In this document: piece by piece, positions 8,570 through 50,304 of the stretch
How positions within the stretch are numbered: the first letter of the stretch is position 1
How the letters are laid out: each line of letters begins with the position of its first letter
Assembly (NCBI GenBank): GCA_021613535.1
Contig: CP075494.1
Location: 2,046,001-2,110,000, forward strand
Direction: 5' to 3'
From: Adineta vaga
Taxonomy: Eukaryota > Animalia > Rotifera
DNA length: 64,000 bases
Position numbers and translations under genes: made by a program
The notes under the pieces: generated by a model
The model's database searches: none
What the model was told of the DNA's origin: nothing
What the model saw: the letters and a program-made list of their open reading frames with translations, nothing else

Positions 8570-10775
8570 TCAGCTAGTTTTACATGTATCATTTGTTGGA
8601 ATAATATGTGATAATACTTGTTGAATCGTTTGTTCTAGAGTATGTCGTTGCGTAGCATCTCCTATCATTGAGTTATTGTTATAAATCTTAGTCACTTCTG
8701 TATATCTATCTAAAGCATCACTATAATTATTCATATCTTCTAGTATTTTACCAAGACCAAGTAATGTTTCAACTTGTTCATCGAGTGGTAAAGGAATATT
8801 TTGTTCCAATGCCAAGTAATAATTCTTCAACGCTTTATCATTAAACTTCAACTCACGATAACAATGACCAAGTTGTTTATAATATCTGGCTACATGTAAT
8901 GGATCCGAAGACATACCGAGAAATATCTTTTTATAGTTTAATATAGTTTCTAAAATACGAATTGCGACATCATAAATACCATATTTAGTGAGTATCTTAG
9001 CTAGTGGATATACTGAATCTAAAAGCTGTTTGATACCGATACTGTACTCTTCGCTTTGCATAAAGGACAAAAGTTCGTTTATTGGCCGAGTTGGAGACAT
9101 TAACGAAAACATCTTTTCAAAATGTTCGATACCTTGAACATACATTTCATGTTCTTCTTTGCTCATTGATCTGGAACTTGAGTATGTATCTGATGGTACA
9201 AAACCAAATTTTATTTCAGTCATTTTTTTATCAATATTTTGCATTTCAATTCGATCATCTTGAGCTTTAGCTACAGCATATAAACCTTCATAACACTTAC
9301 ATATTTCTTCTTTATCATCATATTCAGAAATTAATCGCATATACAACTCTTTGGCTTCGTCATATCGTTTATTATCAGTAAGCATACGTCCATTAACAAA
9401 CCATGGATTCATCGTATTGAATAAACATTCTAATTCCGTATGTATATTATCGAATTTATCATTCAAACTCATTTCGAATAAAAATATATGTGTATTGTCT
9501 TTCGAAATAATATCAAAATTATCAATAATGAATATTCGTCCTGGTGCAAACAATATTTCTTGTTCGTCAGGATGATTACTAATGTTGGATATATCAGCAA
9601 ATGGAAAGTAAAATGATGGATTTTGTTTTTGTATGGTAATTTTAAAAAGAACGATTGAATGAGTAAGATCAAATATTTTATGGTCTGTGGCTAAAAGAAA
9701 AGAGAGAGCAATATCTTTACTTTTCGAAGTTGAAAGAAAACTAGTGTTCATAATAAACGATTTCTTGCAATAAGCTATAAATAGATCGGCTATCTCGAAG
9801 GATGTTGAGCGTTGACCACGATATACAATTAATGTTTGATTATTTGTTGCTTGTGCCATTTTTTCATATAATTCCTTTCATATATCTTGATAAATAAATT
9901 GAAATGATAAAAGATCATTGATGCTTGATGTACGTAGTGCATTATTCAGTTTGCCATAAATAAATTCATTTTTAGTATAAAATAATACGGCTTTATTCGA
10001 TTCATATGTTTCTTGAAATCTATTAATATTTTGGGAATCTATGTGATATTGTGTTTCGAATAGCTTAATAAGATCTGTCTTGTTGGATGAGAAGAGTCGA
10101 GCATTTCGGAGACATATAATCATCAGAAAACGAAGAAGAAAATTTCCATCGAGTTGTTTATATGAACGCTCGATAGGTTCCGTATCTGAAAGACTATCTT
10201 CACTAGATTCAAAACCAAATGATATTGATTCATTGAATCTTATTTGCTGTGTCGCTTCAATGTCTGATTGTTCAATCAAATCGCATTCCATCTTACTAGA
10301 AACATGATCTGCCATATATTTGACCTACAAGTAAAGAATTAAATATAAATAAAATCTATTAAATTTCAAATATACAAGTATTTACTTTGGGATACAATTG
10401 CATTGCTTTTCGTTCTTCATCAGAATATGGAGGTTTGTTCAAAATAAGAATTGCTTTTACTTCTTCACAGTCATGAATAGAAGACACGACATCACTAACT
10501 AGTTGACCTCCAACGAAAACAGTTATTTGAACAGATTGTCTGGTAGATACTATATCAATAACAAAATCATAACATTCATCGACGTTGTTATAAACAAATA
10601 TTCTTTCAGCAGAATCTTCGTTTTTTGTTGCGATGTTTTTATACATTTCAATTTGCTGTTCATCGTCATGTACCACGATAAAAATACAGCTCGCTTCAAT
10701 TTCAGTTTTTCCACGTTCTAGAGCCATTTGAGCAAAAACTTTCATTTTATCGGCAGTTTCATTTGATTCAGTCAT
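8570..10775 (-). CDS. ADP-ribosyltransferase (R-S-E clade)-TPR protein with one in-frame TGA (possible pseudogene or split gene)
   Basis: Exons 10775-10386 and 10324-8570 (715 codons). Motifs YTKNEFIYGKLNNALR, VYRGQ, SFLSTS, EQEILF, then TPR helices. In-frame TGA at 9878-9880 (QDI*KELYEKMAQ). Confidence 0.85.
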
Positions 10776-11054
10776 GTTGTCTATTGCGCACAATTTCAAC
10801 GAATAAAATGAATTTGAGAAAGAAGAAAAAGAGGAGAAATTATGTAAATATTCATTCAATAATAAATTGATTGTGCATGTATCGTATTTCGAATGCTTTG
10901 CAAGAAATAGTTATTTTCTACTGCATTAACAATCTTGAAAAAAATTTTCTTTTTGTATTGTTGTTGTTGTATTTAGAATTATAAAAACCAAAGAAATTAT
11001 TTCGTTTTCTTACATTCTTTCTCATAAAGAATTCATCCCGATAAAGAATAAAAG

Positions 11055-39413: not shown

Positions 39414-40111
39414 CTAGCGGAGATACCCGCTGCAAAAACGACACAATTTACGTTTTTCATCTACAGCAGTGCTTTTCTTATCACCCACAGGACCTCTCCG
39501 TTCGTATTTATCCGTCGTGTATCAAAAAATCCTCACACCCTCCTTTTCCGCCCTGACTTAGTTAGTGTAATCTTTCAGATCGTCACTCAGCGTACGTTAC
39601 CTGTCTTCCACACGTCTTTCTCCTCCGTACTGAGATTCTTCCTATATCCCTTTTTGCGTCATGTACCAGGTCTTTTTTTCAGAACTTCGCATCTCTTCAT
39701 TAGTTCTTTCCTACTGATTTTGTCTCGCTATGCATAAGATATACAACTCTGTTCCTTTTAAATCCACACCCACTGTCCCGCTGCAACTCATTCTCTACTT
39801 TATAAACTTCACTTCTACTCTACACAGGTAGAGTAGTCATTTCACTCCAGATTCAGTTTTTTTGAGAACCCAACCCACGCTTTGTAGTTGTCTATCCTGG
39901 ATGCAGACACCCACACCCACCCTCATTCCTTTATGCCATCTTGAGAGCGAAATTTTACACGCGCCGCCACTGCCATCCCTTGACCGCCATTCTAACCCCA
40001 TGTCGACCTTACTCTGGATCGAGGAAAGCATTGTGGAAAGTTTGGTGACGTTAGCTGTTACAGGAAACGTATGCATAACGAACAAACTTTCTTCTTTATA
40101 TATATAGAAGA
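39414..40111 (-). mobile_element. Non-autonomous Helitron with both ends
   Basis: Minus strand A|TCTTCTATATATATAAAGAAGAAAG ... GCGG-GTATCT-CCGCTAG|T: 5' TC, 3' hairpin + CTAG, AT target, no TSD. Confidence 0.85.
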
Positions 40112-40199
40112 TTATATAGATAGATAGATATAGATTAAAGAACCTTTAACTGTCACATTTATTGCAAGAAATAAATAGTATCAAATAAAAAAACCTCAA

Positions 40200-40726
40200 A
40201 ACTGGAGCACATTCTGTAAGTTTCTACCAAAATAACGACAATTGAAATTCAATACGACTTGGGTGAAATTTCACCCAGACATCGATTCCCACCCTCAAAT
40301 CAATATATTTTGATACGGAACGTGTAAATTACCGTAGATGTGCGCTCAAACGGCCTTCGGCCGCCTTCGCTATCAATTATTTAAAGTTTTTGAAATGCTG
40401 CAATCCTATTGGTCAGTTTCATAGATTGCCCGTAGGAAGCGTAGAATTCATTTTTTTCGGAACAAAGTAAATGTCGACCTTCCCGTGGGCCTAGAGAAGC
40501 ATTGTGGAAAGTTTGGGAATGTTAGCTATCATTGAACTGCCTGGGTGAAATTTCACCCACGCTCCCCACCCTCACCCCCTGATGACCATTCTAACCCCAT
40601 GTAGACCTTTCCTAGGACCTAAGGAAGCATCGTAGAAAGTTTGGTGATCGTGGCTATTACAGCGACTGAATGCATAGCGAACAGACAGGCAGGCAGACAA
40701 ACTTTCTTCCTTATATATATAGAAGA
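40200..40726 (-). mobile_element. Second Helitron of the same family, 3' end degenerate
   Basis: 5' A|TCTTCTATATATATAAGGAAGAAAGTTTGTCTGCCTGCC. Tandem subrepeats GAAGCATTGTGGAAAGTTTGG, hairpin CGGCCTTCGGCCG at 40351-40363, two 18-bp palindromes. Confidence 0.75.
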
Positions 40727-40747
40727 TTAAATTAGTCAAAAAAGAAC

Positions 40748-43700
40748 TCAAACATTTTGTTTATTATTTGATTCATTTTGCATATCAAGACGAGTCTCTG
40801 ATACGACTGGTGTTTTCGGTTTACTGGGTGATTGATTATCTTCTGTATTATTTGTTGGTTGTTGTTCTTCTTGATTCGTTACAAATGTTTCTATAACTAT
40901 ATTAATTATAAATAATTTCTTCTTTTACTGGAAAAAATATTACCTGATTTCTTTTGTTTACTATATGGAGGATCTTCTCTGGACATTTTAACACGTGCCA
41001 TTGCAGTCATAATCCAATCCATTGAATCAATCAACTAAATATACAAATATAATTCTTCATATTAAAATATATTTATCAATACTTTATCAAGACGAGCATC
41101 TATATTATCAACTCGATCAGATATATTCGAATGCATAGATAATAATTTCTCATTAGTTTCCATATGTATACGTGTAAGAGCGACATTCAATTGATTTGTA
41201 TCAAACTTTTGTTGATTTGATTCATTAGTATTCTTCGACATAGCTTCGAATCTGTAAATATGAATAAATCAAAACATATTTTGATCTTTAATTGCAATAC
41301 TTACGAAACATCTGTTGTTATTATATTCGAAGCCGCAGCTATTTGTGCATCGAATAAATGTCGAACATAATCATTTGTTGAATATCGTTCAAATTCTGAC
41401 CAAGCTTTGTCAACACTATCATTAGCTGGAATCATTTCTAAACGAATATAGTTAAGATTAAACATCATATATGCAAAGAATTCATATTCTACTTACTAAA
41501 ATATCGTTTTTCTTTATTTATTATAGAACATTTACTTAAACACCATTTACCAAAATCAACTAACGAAATAAGAAATGTCAATGGAGGAAATAATGCTGGT
41601 CGACCGTAATAATCACGAACTAAACCACAACGATCATAAGCCCAAATATATCGTGCTTGTTCTTGAATATTGGTTATTGTAAAACTAAAATATTCCGTAT
41701 TTTCTTTGTCATCATATTATTATTCAATTTGCTAATTTACTTAAATAAAGCAATAAGTAAATTGACCAAGAGAATATTAACAAATAACATATGAAAAGCA
41801 AATAGAACTTGTGTAGCTATAGTTGTACTAGCATTTGGTGTTTCTAGAAAAAAGAAATTTAATTGAAATAAAGATTAATTGTTCGATTCATTTTACCGTT
41901 TAGAGTGGAAAGTTCATCACCAATATTACCAAGAATAAAATAATAAACTGGATAAACAATTTTTGCAAAGAATTCTCGACCATCAAAAGGAAAAGTATTG
42001 TACGCTATCATTGCTCTTGATCTTATTCCATAACCAAGAATAAAAACCACAATAATAAAGGAAAAAAATAACATATCATTTGCCTATATTAATAATTCTA
42101 ATTATATACACTAACATTAAATTTCTAAAGACATACCATTTTTCGTATCATAACCAATTTTGGACCTAGAAGACGAAAAATACCAATAAATAGAATCGAA
42201 CGAATAAACCATAATTCTAGATCGTATGCCAATACAATTCTATGAAAAATAATTCATTTTAGTATAATTCTAATGTAATGATAATACTTATACCTTGCAG
42301 CTCCGAATGTTTCTGTATCTTTAAGAATAAAACGTAATATAAGTCCAACATAGAAGAGTAAATATGCTGGAATAACAAGAAAAAGATTTGATGATCGATT
42401 CATCACATCAAAATGGCTCAAAAATTTCCTTTTCCATGATAAACCATCTTGGAAATAGAACTATAATTTATAAATAATAAAACGAAAAAGATTAGATGAA
42501 TTAGAATTTATAAACCTGTCGAATATCTTCTATGAGCATTGTAGATACGAATATGATAGTTAAAATTTCAGTCCAATGAATATCGGGAGTACTGTCTGAA
42601 GATGGATTAAATGCATAGAGCATATAATAACTGAAGAACATCAGGAAAAGAATATAACCAAACTAAATAAAAAAACTCAACTAGAAAGACTTTTCTATGA
42701 ATGAAAATATAAAAATCTTACACAAGTATAACAATATTTAACAAATGGACGGTTATGAAAATGTTTAAAATTTTTAAATGTTGATTCATCTATGTGATAA
42801 TCATCTCCATAATTAATACCATTTTTAGCCAATGGTCGTTCATTTATTGATTGTTTAGTGGTCTGTAAAGCTATGAATAATCATATATCATCATGAATAT
42901 ATCAACTTACATTCGTTTGCACAGTTTTTTTCCGAGAATATATTATTTTGTCATAAAATGAAAACAAAGATTGTGCAACACCTAATGTTAACAAACCCAT
43001 GATAAGGCTAGTACGTTCTCGTGTAGAATCAATTTTATCAAACCATATCTTCGTTAATAAAGCATCACATGCATCTTCATTTAAAAATTTCTTATTTTCA
43101 GCAGCAATAGCCACTTGTAAACAAGTTACTTTTCCGTAGAGATCTACTTGTCGTATAATCAATTCACATACTTGTTCACGATCATAAAGATACGAACAAC
43201 GAATACATTCAATTGCATACATTTCAAAATCATCTGCTTCATCATTTAATTTATCTTTTGAATGTTGATCAGGTGCATAGCTTATTAATGATTTAAGAAT
43301 TTTTGAAGCAATCAATGCTGAACAAATACGAATTTTTAATTGACTAAGAAAAAATTTTGCCATATCAAGTCGATGAGTAAGTATACACCATAGAAAAAGA
43401 TCACGATAAATATATTCACTATCAGTTTGACTATTTGAGATTTCTGGTATTACTTTCTGTTGATTTGATGATATTTTATGATGATATAATGGTTCCATAA
43501 AATCTCCAACTAAAATTTTAAGTATTTGACCTAAATATATTCCTTTTTCAGAAATAAGCTTTTCATCGATTCTTTCGAGTAGATACAATGAATCAGTCTA
43601 AAGAAGAGAGGAGAGAGAAAAAAACAAAGCACTTATTGTTCTAAAAATTTTCTAAATCATTCATCAATACATTTTTGCGCATTGTACTTGTATATAATTC

Positions 43701-45875
43701 TTTCAGATAAGTATTCCATGATGTATCTGTATTATTTTGTTTTGAATCAGCAGTAGAAACAAATAAACTAGCTAAATCAATACCAAGTTTAGAGAAATTA
43801 CTGACAAATACTACTAGATTTTTGCTAAGAGCATCAAGAATTAATCTCCGATTATCTTTCATCTATACAATAAACAACATTATAAAAATATCAAATAAAG
43901 ATCATAGCATACTTTTTTTGGATCTTTCCAATTAATTGTATTGATTAATAAATGATTTTCAGTAACATTAGCAACATTCCAACGAAGTGCAAGACGTATT
44001 TGTTCATCAACTGCATTAGCATGGTTTGTAGTATTTTGTGAATGAGATTCTCGTGCTAAGAAAAATAGAAAATTTGATATTGATTAAGAAAAGAATTCAT
44101 CTAACCTTGAACCATTGCATCGTAAATCTTATTTTCTAAACGATCTGATAAATTCATATCAAAAACATGCATTCGATTACGAAAAGGTAATTTTAAACAA
44201 ATTGCAAACCAATATAAATATTGTGCAAATTTATCTTCTTCATGCAAATCTAGTAATTCACTTGTAGATATTTTTGTGCCAATAAGTAAATATTCTTTCT
44301 GTCTGATACTTTCATAGAGTTTCCTTACATCTTTTAAAATATCTGAACGTATTTCGCCGAATACGTTCAAAATTTCTTCTAAACTGAAAATTAAATTATT
44401 TTACATTATTCAAAACTATTATTATAGTTATACATACATCTTTCCTCTAGGCATTTGTTTAAATGAATATTTATCCATTTTATCATGTTCAATGGATTCA
44501 GCAAGATCTAAAATAAAGTTATTATTCATTGAATATTGAAAAAAATGTTGATAATACTTTTAGTTAACTTCAAATATTTACACAATAATGTAGCTAATGG
44601 ACCACTTTGCTGTATGAGATAAAATCAATTATGATAAAAGCAAAATAAGAATAACTTACATCAATAATAACAACTGGAATGTTGTTATACACATAATTGA
44701 ATATGGATTTGAGAGCATGAAGATCAGCTCCTGCAAGAATTGCCAATAATGGTACTAGAATAAGATGAAAAAAATAGATTTTTTAAATAGAATTTCAAAA
44801 AGAATAACTAACTTTTTCGTCGTGTTCCATTTGATATATGTATCGCAAGTTTTGAAGCAAAATCACCAGTATCCATCGAACCATGTGTACCATCATCGAA
44901 AAAAATATATTGTGTAAGATTAGGTTCTAACGTATATCGAGCAAGTGTTGTATGGTATTTTGTATTTTCATCAATATTCTCGATGTTGTGCATAGGCGAA
45001 AATTTAAGCAAATGATCAGTTATATTATACTTGGATTCTATTATTGATGGATCAGGTATATTACCCCATTTACCAATCCCGACTGCTCGAAAATTAATCT
45101 GAGGATTTTTCACACGACTTTTATAAACAACTTCACCGATAAGTTGTGAAATGGTATCTTCTTTGTAAGTATTTGTGATAATACATGCATCTAAAATTGA
45201 ATAGAATATTTTATTGATATATATGCGAATAATTGTAGAAGTCCTACTAGATGCTGTAGCTGCATCAGCAATGCCTTTCAAAACTGCTTTCTCTAATTTC
45301 ACATTCAGTAGAGAACTTGTATCACTTATTATACGTATAATCAAACCAGGTAAATGCATATCCCATATACTCAATAAAACTAAACAGAGCTGATCAAGAT
45401 CTGTCTTAATACTACAACGTAAATACTATAGAATAAATAAGAATAATCAATATTATTTTGCTGTTAAAAGATATTAATACATACAGGACTCTTCGATTGA
45501 GGTAAACAACCATAGACAATCGTCGGTTCTTCCTTGGTATGCCTTTTCCAAGACCATACTTCATTACGATGATCACTTTTGATAGTACTATCCTCATGAA
45601 CTGATTTATGTTGATTACAAACACAAAAATCATTATCAACTCTAATAGATACAACGATTAAATGAGTTTATATTTCAGATGAACTGTGAATGCATACTCT
45701 CGTGGAATGAAGGTAACACATGTTCGTTGTTGAAACTGTAATCGATTTATAGCAGCCTTCCAAGCTGGTAGTTTATCCTATAGTTCAATTTGAAATAAGA
45801 ATCAAACAAAAGAAACAGAACTTGTTTTATACATACATCTATAACTGTTGAGCTTTTTGGAAGCGATGAAAGCAT
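40748..45875 (-). CDS. TRPM-family cation channel (N-terminal SLOG/MHR, 6TM, TRP box), without C-terminal NUDT9-H or kinase
   Basis: More than 20 exons. LEPNLTQYIFFDDG, YRDLFLWCIL, ALIASKIL, TCLQVA, GPKLVMIRKM, NILLVNLLIALF, WAYDR.GLVRDYYGRPALFPP. Stop TGA at 40748-40750. Confidence 0.9.
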
Positions 45876-46154
45876 CTTTTCGAACTGAGTAGTAATTTAT
45901 TTTGTTAACAATAGAAGATTATATAGCTCTTTTTATTTCTGTTTACTATTGATGGAAAAAACCCCTGTAAAGTTTATTTTAAAAGAATTGAGGAATGAAG
46001 TGTAGACTCTTGTACATAATAAAATAATGAGAAAAAACCCTGATTTTTAATTCTTTTCCTTTCCCTAAGAGGAGAAAAAAAATGATTTTCACCCCAATTG
46101 TGAATTGGTTTCGTATAAATATATTCTTTTTTTTTAATTCAGTAAGCAAAAGAG

Positions 46155-47819
46155 ATGAGTGACGATACTGAACAGAAATATCAACAAATGGTTAAAGAAA
46201 TTGGAGAAATTTGTTCACTTTTATTTCAAAATTTTGACAACAGAAACACGTGCAACATGCATAACTATAAAATTAAACACATTAGTTCGTATTTATTATG
46301 TTGATCAATTTAAATCTATTACGTCAAAACCAAAATTTTTAACTTTGACCCATGCGTTTATAACGGAAACTTACATGATACCTACTTCAGACAAATACAT
46401 AAAGTATCATCCTCGAATTTTTAACTTATTACTTATGAATTATGCTAAAGATGATTTTCTCGTCAAATTTCTGAAGAAGTTTTCTCTAAATGAATCAATA
46501 CCAATGACAAGTAAGATTATATAGTATTCTTCTATTAGTGTTCGCAAAAATATAGAGTATGATCGTTGAGAAGCATTACTTACTGTGAAATCCTACATTG
46601 ATAACCTCTTTCTTGACTGAAATCTATATTTAGATCCGGATGTGAATGATAACCAATGCTCACAAACTATTGATAATAATGCCAAAGGTTTACTACTTAG
46701 AGTCATATCATTTGCTCGTGATCTCAGTACTAGCATTGTCATACAATCCATCGAAGATTTCAATAATAATTATCAACTCTTAATGAAATCACTTCTGACA
46801 TATATCGATCATTTTTTGAATATTTATGATGGGAATACAACAAACAGCTTTCTTACGGACATCATAGACTATATATATTGTGGATAAGAGCTAATTTAAC
46901 TGGTAAAGCAATACTAGTGCCAGTTTTTATCGATGCACAATATGCTGATACTACCATCAAATGGGCCAAAACAACCATCCTTTCCTAATATTATTAAACG
47001 ATTCGGAGAACAAATTGTGCTAATCATTTACAATTTATCAAGACATATGAAAGGCTTGAAAATGTTGCGAAAAGGTAAAGTACTCAATACTTTGAAAAAT
47101 CTCAAATTGTTTATAGAAAAATCAGACCAACAGCAATTAAAAATATCATTTGGTATATTTCGGATTACAAACACTATTGTGATGAACTAAGAAATGATGA
47201 TCTTTTATACACTCTAATACGATGTCTTGCTAAACATCCTAAACAAGATGTTGCGAAACGAACTTGATGGAATCTACAACGGCTTGATTATTCGGAATTA
47301 TCAGAAAATATATTAAAAATTGTTAAAACACCACAAATATATGTTAGTTAGAATTTGGACGATGTAGAATTTTGTCGTTTATTCGTTGACATTTTACGTC
47401 AGACTATTAGTTTACCAATCTGAGTCGACTTTAATGAACTAGAGGAATTGGAAGATCCATGGGAATACATTGCTCCAGCAATTAAATCAGCAACAATAAT
47501 TATTATCTTAGCATCGAGTTTCTACGCTAATAGTAATTATAATCGACAAGAATTGACTTATACATTGTAAAAAATCAAATCATCTACTAAAAAAAACGTT
47601 TTGTTGTCGTCGGAATCGAGTATGGCTTACATTTTAATCCATTGCCAATTGATAATCTTTTTAAAATAGACGAAACTATCTCATATGACGAAAAAACTCT
47701 TCAAAATTTGGCACGTAAAGTAACTGATCTAGGGGTACTATCAAAAGACAACAAACAAACGTTTGTTTTCTTGTTCACCTCATATTGTCACTCAATCAAG
47801 TATTTATACTCTCATGTAA
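46155..47819 (+). pseudogene. Decayed tandem paralog of the helical-repeat TIR gene
   Basis: Colinear similarity to 48139-50304 including the intron. Frameshifts, an internal deletion near 47160 and several stops in the TIR region. Ends SSIYTLM (CaaX Cys lost). Confidence 0.88.
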
Positions 47820-48138
47820 ATCAATAGAACACTTAGCATCATATATTACATAGAATTTTTCACTTGTGAATTCATATAATATGTTAAAGAATAACTATAC
47901 TACTATATCTGGATGATATGTAAGTGCTTGTCCTTGATATCTTCGTTATCCCCTTTCAATCTCATTCTAAGTCAAGCTAGAAAGAGAGAGTTTCAAATCC
48001 TGCATTTTTTTGGCACCTGCTATAGTTGATTATTGTAATGACTGACTATGTCTTTATTTTCCTTTGTAGATATAAATCTTCTTTGAACGTATTTATAATT
48101 CATATAAATATATTTTTTATTTAATATAATAACAATAG

Positions 48139-50304
48139 ATGAGTAGCGGTATGGAAGAGAAATATCAACACATCAATTACTTTCGTAATATTAACAATTG
48201 GTTAGAAATATTGAGTCTTCCGAACAATGCCAATGATCCAACGAAGTTATTTGAAGTTAAAGATATTGAAGAAATTTGTTCTCCGTTATCTGAAAATTTT
48301 GACGATATAGTTGCTGATTTGCCATCAAGAACACGTGTAGCACTCGTAACTACAACGTTAAACACATTAATTCGTATTTGTAATGCTGATCAGTCTAATT
48401 CTATCACATCAATCCCAGCATTTTCACATATGTCCACAGTTTTGTTGGAAGAGGCCTTCCAAATAATTAAGTTAGACCAATACATCGAATTTCTTACAGA
48501 AATGTTCAACTTACTTTTTATGAACTTTGCCAAAGATAATTTTCTCGTCAAAATTCTGAAGAGATGTTTTCCAAATAAATCAATACCAAAAACAAGTAAG
48601 ATTATATTTAACTATTACCAACATACTTCATTTGTTTTTCTATTCGTATATTAGAAAAAGTAGGATTTAGTCTGAAAGAATAGTTACTTACTGTAGAATC
48701 CTCTGTTGTTAACTTCTTTGTACATTGAAATCGAAGAAAAGAAATAAAATTTAGAATACTGACTATGTTGAAAATATTTAGATCCAATTATGGACAATCA
48801 ACAATGCTCAGAAACTATTACTGCTGGTACCAAATATTTCTTAGACAATTTGATTGTACTCGTTGCTTTTCTGATTACGAAAATTAGTGTTCATTTCACC
48901 GAAGATTTTGATAATAATTATCAATCGTTCATAGGATCTCTGATTGAATACGTCGATGAATTTTTTGATTCTTATAAAGAATATACAGCGTGCAAAGTTC
49001 AAAAGCTAATCATAGAACATATTTTAAGTATAGCAACTAATTTAACTGATAAAACGTCATTGATACCAATATTTATTAAAGCCAAATATGCTGATAAAAC
49101 TGTTAAATGGGTAGAACAATCATCATTCTCTAATTATATTGATGGATTTGGGGAAAATATTGTTGGAATCGTCTACAATTTATCACGACATAGAAAAGGT
49201 CTGAAAGCATTGCGAGAATGTAAAACACTCGATGTTTTGAAGAATCAAAAATCATTTATAATGAAAACAAAGAATGAAACTTTGATAGGTTTATTTGGTA
49301 TGTTATTAATTGCATTGCCCAGAAATGATGATGAAGAAAAAGATAATGAAAAGATTATTCTCAAGGTTAGTAATTCTCTGTACTCTAAAAGTGTGCTAGC
49401 AGCCAAAGAAGACAACTGGCGATTTGATGGATGTCATTTGTCAGAATATCTTTATTCGCTTCAGAATGCATTCTCAAATATAACGATTATACAAAACATA
49501 TTGGGTGATTCAGAACATGTGAAAAAAGATCGAATTCAATTCTTCAGAGAACGTTTCTGTTCTATCTATGGTATCTTATTCAATGAAGATGAAAGCGATC
49601 TCGACAAGCTTGTTGTCAAGTCTTTATTAAATATTTTTCTATGTATTTCAAATTATGAACAATATCGTAGCGAATTAAGAGACGATCTTTTTCTATACAC
49701 TCTGATTGAAATTCTTGCTAAACAACACAAACAAGGTGTTGCTAAACGGATTTGGAGCAATCTTAACATTGTCAAACCTACGAAAGTATTATTGGATAAA
49801 ATCAAACAAGAAAAAACACCAAAAATATATATTAGTTACAATTGGGCTGATGAAAAATTTTGTCGTTCATTCGTTGACTTTTTACATCAAAATATAAGTA
49901 TTCCAATTTGGGTCGACTATGAGGAAACAGACGAAAATGAAGATCCATGGGATTATGTAGCTCTAGCCATTGAATCTGCCACGATAGTTATTATGTTAGC
50001 ATCGAGTTTCTACGCTAATAGTAAACATAATCATCAAGAATTAACTTATACATTGGAAAAAATCAAATCATCTACTGAAAAGAAACATTTTATTGTCGTC
50101 GTGATTGAAGATAAATTTCGTTTTACTCCATTGCGAATGAACAATCTTTTAGAAATAGACGAAACCATATCATATGACGAAAATCCTGAAAATTTAGCAC
50201 GTAAAGTAGCTGATCTAGAGGTACTATCAAAAGACAACAAACAAACGTTTGTTTCTTGTTCACCTCATATTGTCACTCAATCAAGTATTTGTATTCTCAT
50301 GTAA
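48139..50304 (+). CDS. Helical (ARM-like) repeat + TIR domain protein with C-terminal CaaX
   Basis: Exons 48139-48595 and 48782-50304. TIR motifs IYISYNWAD, IWVD, AIESATIVIMLASSFYANS...QEL. Ends CILM*. Confidence 0.88.

Follow-up and report, generated by a model that had tools for sequence, protein, structure and literature searches.

The stretch of DNA analysed here (hereafter the window; 64,000 nt, contig C5:2046001-2110000 of the Adineta vaga genome, G000) carries a TRPM channel gene that faces one dead and one intact gene for a protein joining an armadillo (ARM) solenoid to a TIR domain. The TRPM-TIR pair is real, conserved and apparently undescribed: its two genes have been co-duplicated one-to-one, both members of one pair are transcribed in the same samples, and its channels have replaced the SLOG residues with which human TRPM2 holds ADP-ribose (ADPR). 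A sequence-only reading of the window had proposed that the two genes form a TIR-to-channel signalling module. The conserved linkage and the retained catalytic Glu of the TIR domain agree with that proposal, whereas its mechanism, that is, ADPR acting at the canonical SLOG site, is not supported.

The gene pair in the window

The A. vaga genome comprises 100.8 Mb in six contigs, with about 30% GC and introns mostly of 50-60 bases. In the window, the channel gene (45875..40748, minus strand; NCBI model I4U23_022435) is intact, running from an ATG at 45875 to a TGA at 40748-40750 through 23 coding exons that are free of stops and separated by short introns of the ordinary kind, and it encodes about 1,270-1,300 amino acids. 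The product shows the order expected of the TRPM family, that is, SLOG (MHR1/2), MHR3/4, a six-helix transmembrane region, a TRP helix and a coiled coil. Pfam matches are to LSDAT_euk (E 2.4e-23) and TRPM2-like (E 4.7e-29), and in the PDB the sequence comes closest to TRPM2 of Nematostella and human (E 1e-76 to 1e-70). The absence of NUDT9-H noted earlier was confirmed by the Pfam and PDB searches; Pfam detected no kinase either, and neither database gave a match past about residue 1190. The gene is bordered at its 3′ end by a high-copy repeat (39830-40730; depth about 3,600 vs 100 in run X1), from which the NCBI model draws a doubtful 24th, last exon. A related repeat piece also adjoins the TRPM gene on contig C1.

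As had been read from the sequence, the channel ATG lies 280 bp from the ATG of a decayed TIR gene (46155, plus strand), and the layout of the 279-bp divergent spacer (45876..46154) suggests a putative bidirectional promoter. The decayed gene (46155..47819, plus strand) is a tandem copy of the ARM-TIR gene that is interrupted by frameshifts and in-frame stops, lacks about 340 bp present in the intact copy, and has lost the Cys of the C-terminal CaaX box. The intact gene (48139-50304, plus strand), whose ATG is 2,264 bp from that of the channel, consists of two coding exons (48139..48595 and 48782..50304) and encodes 659 amino acids. Exon 2 specifies an armadillo-like solenoid and then the TIR domain (TIR_2, 49825..50200, E 3.3e-14), with the presumed catalytic Glu of a QEL motif at 50038-50040, and closes with the CaaX box (CILM-stop, 50290..50304), a predicted prenylation site. 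A T-rich tract followed by AG (48090-48139) precedes the ATG and resembles the RNA-shown acceptor of the paralog at C5:4.98 Mb. The dead state of the nearest TIR copy had been held against a functional pairing. The copy is indeed decayed, but at the other loci the corresponding position is occupied by an intact TIR gene, so that the dead copy amounts only to a local tandem duplicate.

Conservation of the TRPM-TIR linkage

A search of the A. vaga genome identified at least 23 TRPM loci (25 matches, two of which are second pieces) and at least 105 TIR_2 matches, many of them in tandem clusters (C5:11.69-11.76 Mb). A TIR_2 match within 10 kb was found at three of the 23 TRPM loci, compared with 1.5% of random positions, and these three are exactly the members of one clade of channels, hereafter the paired clade; at the remaining 20 loci the nearest TIR_2 match is at least 46 kb away. 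The linkage seen in the window is thus conserved at all three clade copies and at none of the 20 other loci, which is more than chance. Moreover, a profile of the ARM-TIR family matched at all three paired control loci and detected no relative within 20 kb at any of the nine unpaired loci examined (of 20).

The closest TRPM paralogs of the window gene, at C1:16.63 Mb (67%) and C5:4.98 Mb (63%), each stand head-to-head with a close TIR paralog, and these partners are the two closest TIR paralogs in the genome (59% and 40% identical); no orphan close TIR paralog was found in the genome search. The spacing from ATG to ATG is 384 bp at the C1 locus and about 1.1 kb, including an intron, at C5:4.98 Mb. 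The same divergent layout, with a spacing of about 340 bp and a TIR protein 33-40% identical, occurs at a metagenome locus (L051); a first metagenome scan had given no match, and the two loci returned by a second are one identical sequence, counted once. The flanks of these four DNA loci have only repeat-family genes in common (NHL, kelch, a G protein-coupled receptor fragment), and the pair therefore appears to have moved as a unit. Whole-genome duplication was rejected as the origin of the copies: there are no common flanks, and, provided that the contig numbers correspond to those of the published chromosomes, C1 and C5 are not homoeologs, the reported A. vaga pairs being 1-4, 2-5 and 3-6 (PMC8494291). 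About ten distant ARM-TIR genes in A. vaga show no linkage to any TRPM gene, and a distant member of the superfamily, an 812-aa open frame at C5:4991596-4992762, is located a few kb downstream of a paired TRPM gene.

All close homologs that carry species names are bdelloid. In bdelloid assemblies accession numbers step by about 2-18 per gene (gauged on pieces of a split gene), and for 19 of 41 TIR accessions a clade TRPM accession was found within 20: 2/2 in A. ricciae, 11/14 in Rotaria magnacalcarata, 5/14 in R. socialis and 1/5 in A. steineri. With 10 of the 34 TRPM clusters looked up, a miss does not equal absence; as assemblies of the same species recur, the adjacency counts as four species, and accessions give no orientation. 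The longest contig has the same size for several TIR/TRPM accession pairs (12135, 140447, 56835, 27385, 57461, 44281, 16990 and 15552). Among the homologs listed, none of the paired-clade TRPM sequences is from Didymodactylos. The annotation of one distant ARM-TIR relative, from Didymodactylos carnosus (P0141), includes a CENP-V/GFA domain.

When a channel tree and a TIR tree were built from seven cognate pairs, the clade ((C5:4.98 Mb, A. ricciae), R. socialis) appeared in both, with support of 98-100, and the two trees were correlated overall (Mantel r 0.75, 10/5040 permutations), while other branches of the channel tree are weak. This shared clade indicates that the TRPM and TIR duplications predate the Adineta-Rotaria split.

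For the pair at C5:4.98 Mb, RNA contigs of three runs (X7, X8 and X9) cross the coding intron of the TIR gene and many GT-AG introns of the channel gene; both genes are spliced, and therefore transcribed, in the same samples. A fourth RNA run (X5) gave next to nothing on this pair. In the X9 contigs the TIR ATG comes immediately after an intron, and the first exon is therefore non-coding and closer to the channel start. The intact TIR gene of the window may similarly begin with a non-coding exon close to the TRPM start and skip the dead copy as part of an intron. No RNA data set is listed as containing the window pair, and three presumed RNA runs yielded only short pieces of it, which indicate expression neither way. 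A junction at 47054-49903 was rejected as window splicing, as its loose ends match the TIR transcript from C5:4.98 Mb.

A remodelled SLOG pocket in the paired channels

In human TRPM2, ADPR is reported to be clamped by Y295 and the beta5-alpha3 loop, with R358 and the start of helix alpha7 holding the phosphates and R302 the ribose (PMC6759353). The mutations R302A, R358A and T336A are reported to abolish ADPR gating, and G333A to reduce it (bioRxiv 10.1101/2024.03.18.584035). When aligned to human TRPM2, all 10 non-redundant members of the paired clade carry G176D, R302A, E331G, G333D/T, T336A/S and R358P/Q/S and have M, V, L or Q in place of Y295 (P0041 lacks the second loop). That is, the MHR1/2 ligand residues of an ADPR-gated TRPM2 are not found in the paired clade. 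In the window channel (minus strand), the first SLOG loop (45312..45341) reads IIRIISDTSS against human ISVTGGAK, with Asp for G176; the DDGT motif is followed by Met and Ala at the Y295 and R302 positions (44847..44897); and the start of the phosphate-binding helix together with the R358 loop (44592..44743) shows Asp for G333, Ala for T336 and Pro for R358.

The sequence-only reading had regarded the loops LIIRIISDT and CIITNT as degenerate. They do align with LISVTGGAK and WIITGG of TRPM2, but decay was rejected as their cause, the replacements being fixed across species throughout the clade. In an unpaired sister (P0043) the pocket still reads GGAK, Y, R, EGG and GSGR, and a GG-type loop is retained by most of the unpaired A. 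vaga channels that were examined. In a channel tree of 38 rows, based on one exon-sized region, the channels with a known TIR neighbour all fall (8/8) in one clade of 16 rows (support 99/100, stem 0.98) that is sister to a group with the canonical pocket (86/86); the neighbour labels change 7 times on this tree, and eight clade members carry none. Since all eight paired channels belong to one remodelled clade whose sister group is canonical, the pocket was rebuilt on the branch that carries the pairing. Taken with the reported effects of mutations at the same sites, these replacements make classic ADPR gating of the paired-clade channels unlikely. The missing NUDT9-H, which had been raised as counter-evidence to the module, does not count as such, as the sea-anemone (Nematostella) TRPM2 is reportedly gated through MHR1/2 alone, NUDT9-H being dispensable (bioRxiv 10.1101/2024.03.18.584035).

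Within the paired-clade channels, conservation is highest in the transmembrane region (0.82). The window TRPM has Ser at the position aligned with D872, which we take to belong to the TRPM2 calcium site. An AlphaFold model of the N-terminus of a clade channel (P0014) had a mean predicted local distance difference test score (pLDDT) of 51.6, mostly below 50 in the SLOG domain, and was not used.

The ARM-TIR protein

An AlphaFold model of the 504 residues encoded by exon 2 (62 sequences, pLDDT 88) consists of a helical solenoid joined to a TIR domain by a short linker, so that the ARM part is predicted to stand N-terminal to TIR, as in SARM1. The solenoid resembles beta-catenin (Z 15.4, root mean square deviation 5.9 over 293 residues) and the TIR part the TIR domain of IL-1RAcPb (Z 15.3, 2.8 over 136), and the top Foldseek matches are SARM1/TIR-1 (SARM1 E 1.3e-5, with low whole-chain TM scores of 0.2-0.27) and armadillo proteins. 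Pfam detected no SAM domain in the protein, and the model leaves only a linker of about 20 residues between the last helix and TIR; no NB-ARC, LRR or SIR2 domain was detected by Pfam in the TRPM and TIR proteins. A profile of the TIR family gave weak PDB matches only, none of them to SARM1 at the sequence level; Kv channel matches in the same search were dismissed as chance. The leads from the ESM Atlas were all generic, armadillo-like and below 0.92.

The retention of the QEL Glu by the intact window gene, read correctly from the sequence, extends to the whole family: the alphaC catalytic Glu is present in 30 of the 31 close relatives having a residue there, in which the SY, D and W motifs are also kept, and, in another count, in 11 of 11. 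A CaaX-like end, which we take to be a prenylation motif, terminates 20 of 32 close relatives and none of the 81 TRPM entries used as control; judging from this motif, the ARM-TIR protein would be prenylated and membrane-anchored. Six of the 32 (P0011, P0111, P0120, P0121, P0122 and P0124) end instead in W-V/M, mostly S/T-W-V, resembling a PDZ-binding tail. The NCBI model of the TIR gene on C1 (L072/P0002) is wrong at its 3′ end; in the genome the frame closes with IVCTLM-stop, a CaaX box. A 52-aa member (P0052) of the rotifer-type TIR cluster (P0005) is labelled as a Peptoniphilus harei metagenome-assembled genome, probably a clustering or binning artefact.

How the pair may work

The explanation that we favour, although we hold it tentatively and would put its chances a little below even, is that the ARM-TIR protein and the TRPM channel devoid of ADPR-binding residues constitute a putative, dedicated module at the membrane, with the TIR protein docking on and controlling its own channel. 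We prefer such a complex because a seemingly messenger-deaf channel has been kept one-to-one with a presumably membrane-anchored partner amid more than 100 other TIR matches; the genome has at least 105 TIR_2 matches, and if the channels responded to a common messenger that diffuses freely, there would be no need for each copy to keep a TIR of its own. In such a module, a shared divergent promoter would keep the two proteins in proportion, and prenylation would place ARM-TIR on the membrane. The ARM solenoid would sense a stress or pathogen cue and free the TIR domain, as in SARM1; the activated protein would then bind the remodelled SLOG face of its partner and thereby open the channel, perhaps with the help of a locally made NAD-derived product. 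The ensuing influx of cations, together with NAD loss, would kill or alarm the cell. A more specific version, which we consider conceivable but rather doubtful, is a two-gene animal immune module, built independently of bacteria, in which prenylated ARM-TIR opens TRPM through a retuned SLOG pocket, by means of a private TIR-made signal or the TIR protein itself. If true, an animal TIR signal would for the first time have an identified receptor or effector. In a preprint by Hurieva et al., animal TIRs, rotifer ones included, are reported to make cyclic ADPR (cADPR), and its accessible text neither mentions TRPM nor names an identified receiver for cADPR (bioRxiv 10.64898/2026.04.20.719644).

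Several observations weigh against a dedicated module. Conservation of the Glu does not prove enzyme activity, and 12 of 61 Glu-bearing animal TIRs are reported as active in an E. coli test (bioRxiv 10.64898/2026.04.20.719644). A CaaX end is shared by 8 of 30 distant members of the family, and in A. vaga such distant members have no TRPM partner. Adjacency in other bdelloids covers less than half of the 41 TIR accessions, with 0/6 in Rotaria sp. Silwood2 (the TRPM list being incomplete), and the mirrored trees are explained by co-duplication alone and are no sign of protein contact. Furthermore, four of five differences in the intact window TIR gene in DNA run X1 are non-synonymous; together with the dead proximal copy, this suggests that the window pair may be the least constrained one and may be drifting.

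A diffusible signal in the manner of Thoeris, that is, a non-ADPR molecule made by the TIR from NAD and recognised by a more acidic, retuned SLOG pocket, perhaps via a metal ion, is the main rival but seems to us unlikely. The pocket positions are conserved in the clade (mean 0.80 vs 0.75 for the rest of MHR1/2), with G176D, R302A and one added Glu invariant, but this excess is small and refers to raw means. The conserved Glu and the reported cADPR synthesis by rotifer TIRs would suit such a relay, as would the reported pairing of a TIR with an ion channel in bacterial type X Thoeris (bioRxiv 10.64898/2025.12.03.692087). However, the known TIR products all have a pyrophosphate, whereas the pocket no longer has either arginine or the start of the phosphate-binding helix, and a diffusible signal fits one-to-one retention of paralogs less well than does a dedicated complex.

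Signalling in the opposite direction is, in our estimation, quite improbable. Here the channel would stand upstream, its influx activating the TIR NADase, or would serve as a decoy or guardee watched by the ARM solenoid, with the TIR executing by NAD depletion. Head-to-head pairs of sensor and executor genes exist in plants, a pocket-dead channel would suit a decoy, and the whole-protein fold best matches SARM1/TIR-1, an NAD-depleting executioner; a Rotaria sordida TIR reportedly depleted NAD, its membership in the paired ARM-TIR family not being established. The strong conservation of the transmembrane region is nevertheless that of a working channel rather than a decoy, and there is no SAM domain for octamer formation.

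It is similarly improbable that the two genes are passive neighbours, held together by a common promoter or by joint segmental duplication with no mechanistic link. Head-to-head genes can stay together simply because they share a promoter, neighbouring genes travel together in duplications of about 10 kb, and adjacency across species at one orthologous locus can be plain synteny. Against this, intact partners occur at three A. vaga loci and the metagenome locus despite TIR identities of only 33-59% and flanks that share only repeat-family genes, the copies split before Adineta and Rotaria did, and the pocket remodelling falls on the same clade. Finally, opening of the channel by TIR-made ADPR or a cyclic isomer via the TRPM2 site is very unlikely: a SLOG domain is present, NUDT9-H is dispensable in Nematostella TRPM2, and the SLOG domain of the Thoeris protein ThsA reportedly superimposes on the TRPM2 pocket (bioRxiv 10.1101/2021.01.06.425286), but Y295, R302, G333, T336 and R358 are replaced in 10/10 members, and alanine substitutions at three of these positions (R302A, R358A, T336A) are reported to abolish ADPR gating of human TRPM2.

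Relation to known systems

As reported for type I Thoeris (a ThsB TIR protein and a ThsA SIR2-SLOG effector), a Glu-bearing TIR gene stably adjoins the gene of a SLOG effector in the rotifer pair, and the ion channel effector is a feature shared with type X Thoeris as reported (bioRxiv 10.64898/2025.12.03.692087). Thoeris, however, is an operon, whereas the rotifer pair consists of intron-rich divergent animal genes; the type I effector has SIR2, whereas the rotifer one is a full TRPM channel that lacks SIR2 and has lost the SLOG pocket arginines. PADLOC matched none of the four proteins submitted, type I Thoeris profiles included. The pair is thus Thoeris-like in logic and not a member of Thoeris, and on sequence evidence it likely arose independently, from an ordinary rotifer TRPM lineage. 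Burroughs and Aravind have reportedly linked SLOG, TRPM and TIR in prokaryotes by comparative genomics.

TRPM2 of human, zebrafish and Nematostella has the same domain order as the rotifer channel and provides its best PDB matches, but the latter differs in the absence of NUDT9-H, in the replaced MHR1/2 ligand residues and in the Ser equivalent to D872. SARM1 and C. elegans TIR-1 share with the rotifer protein an ARM solenoid and a Glu-bearing TIR, whereas the rotifer protein differs in its CaaX end, its genomic partner and its lack of SAM, and does not match SARM1 at the level of sequence. The paired NLR genes of plants that stand head-to-head (RRS1/RPS4 type) are likewise divergent, tightly linked and co-retained and include a TIR enzyme; they have NB-ARC and LRR domains, whereas the rotifer pair has neither and the partner is an ion channel. 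ARM-TIR proteins have been named as an invertebrate class (PMC9334734). No description of the rotifer TRPM-TIR pair was found in a literature search that covered mostly titles and abstract openings, outside the subscription journals.

The gene-neighbourhood logic behind the discovery of bacterial Thoeris is rarely usable in animals, and the rotifer pair offers it. Several cognate enzyme-channel paralogs are available for the study of animal TIR signalling, with an unpaired sister (C6:1.88 Mb) that keeps the canonical pocket as a built-in control. The pair also appears to provide a natural case in which a TRPM SLOG domain loses ADPR recognition on the branch that gains a TIR partner.

Elsewhere in the window, a gene combining TPR with an ADP-ribosyltransferase-family domain (8573-10910, minus strand) represents another NAD-using rotifer expansion, and further similar open reading frames are found at 54128-56322.

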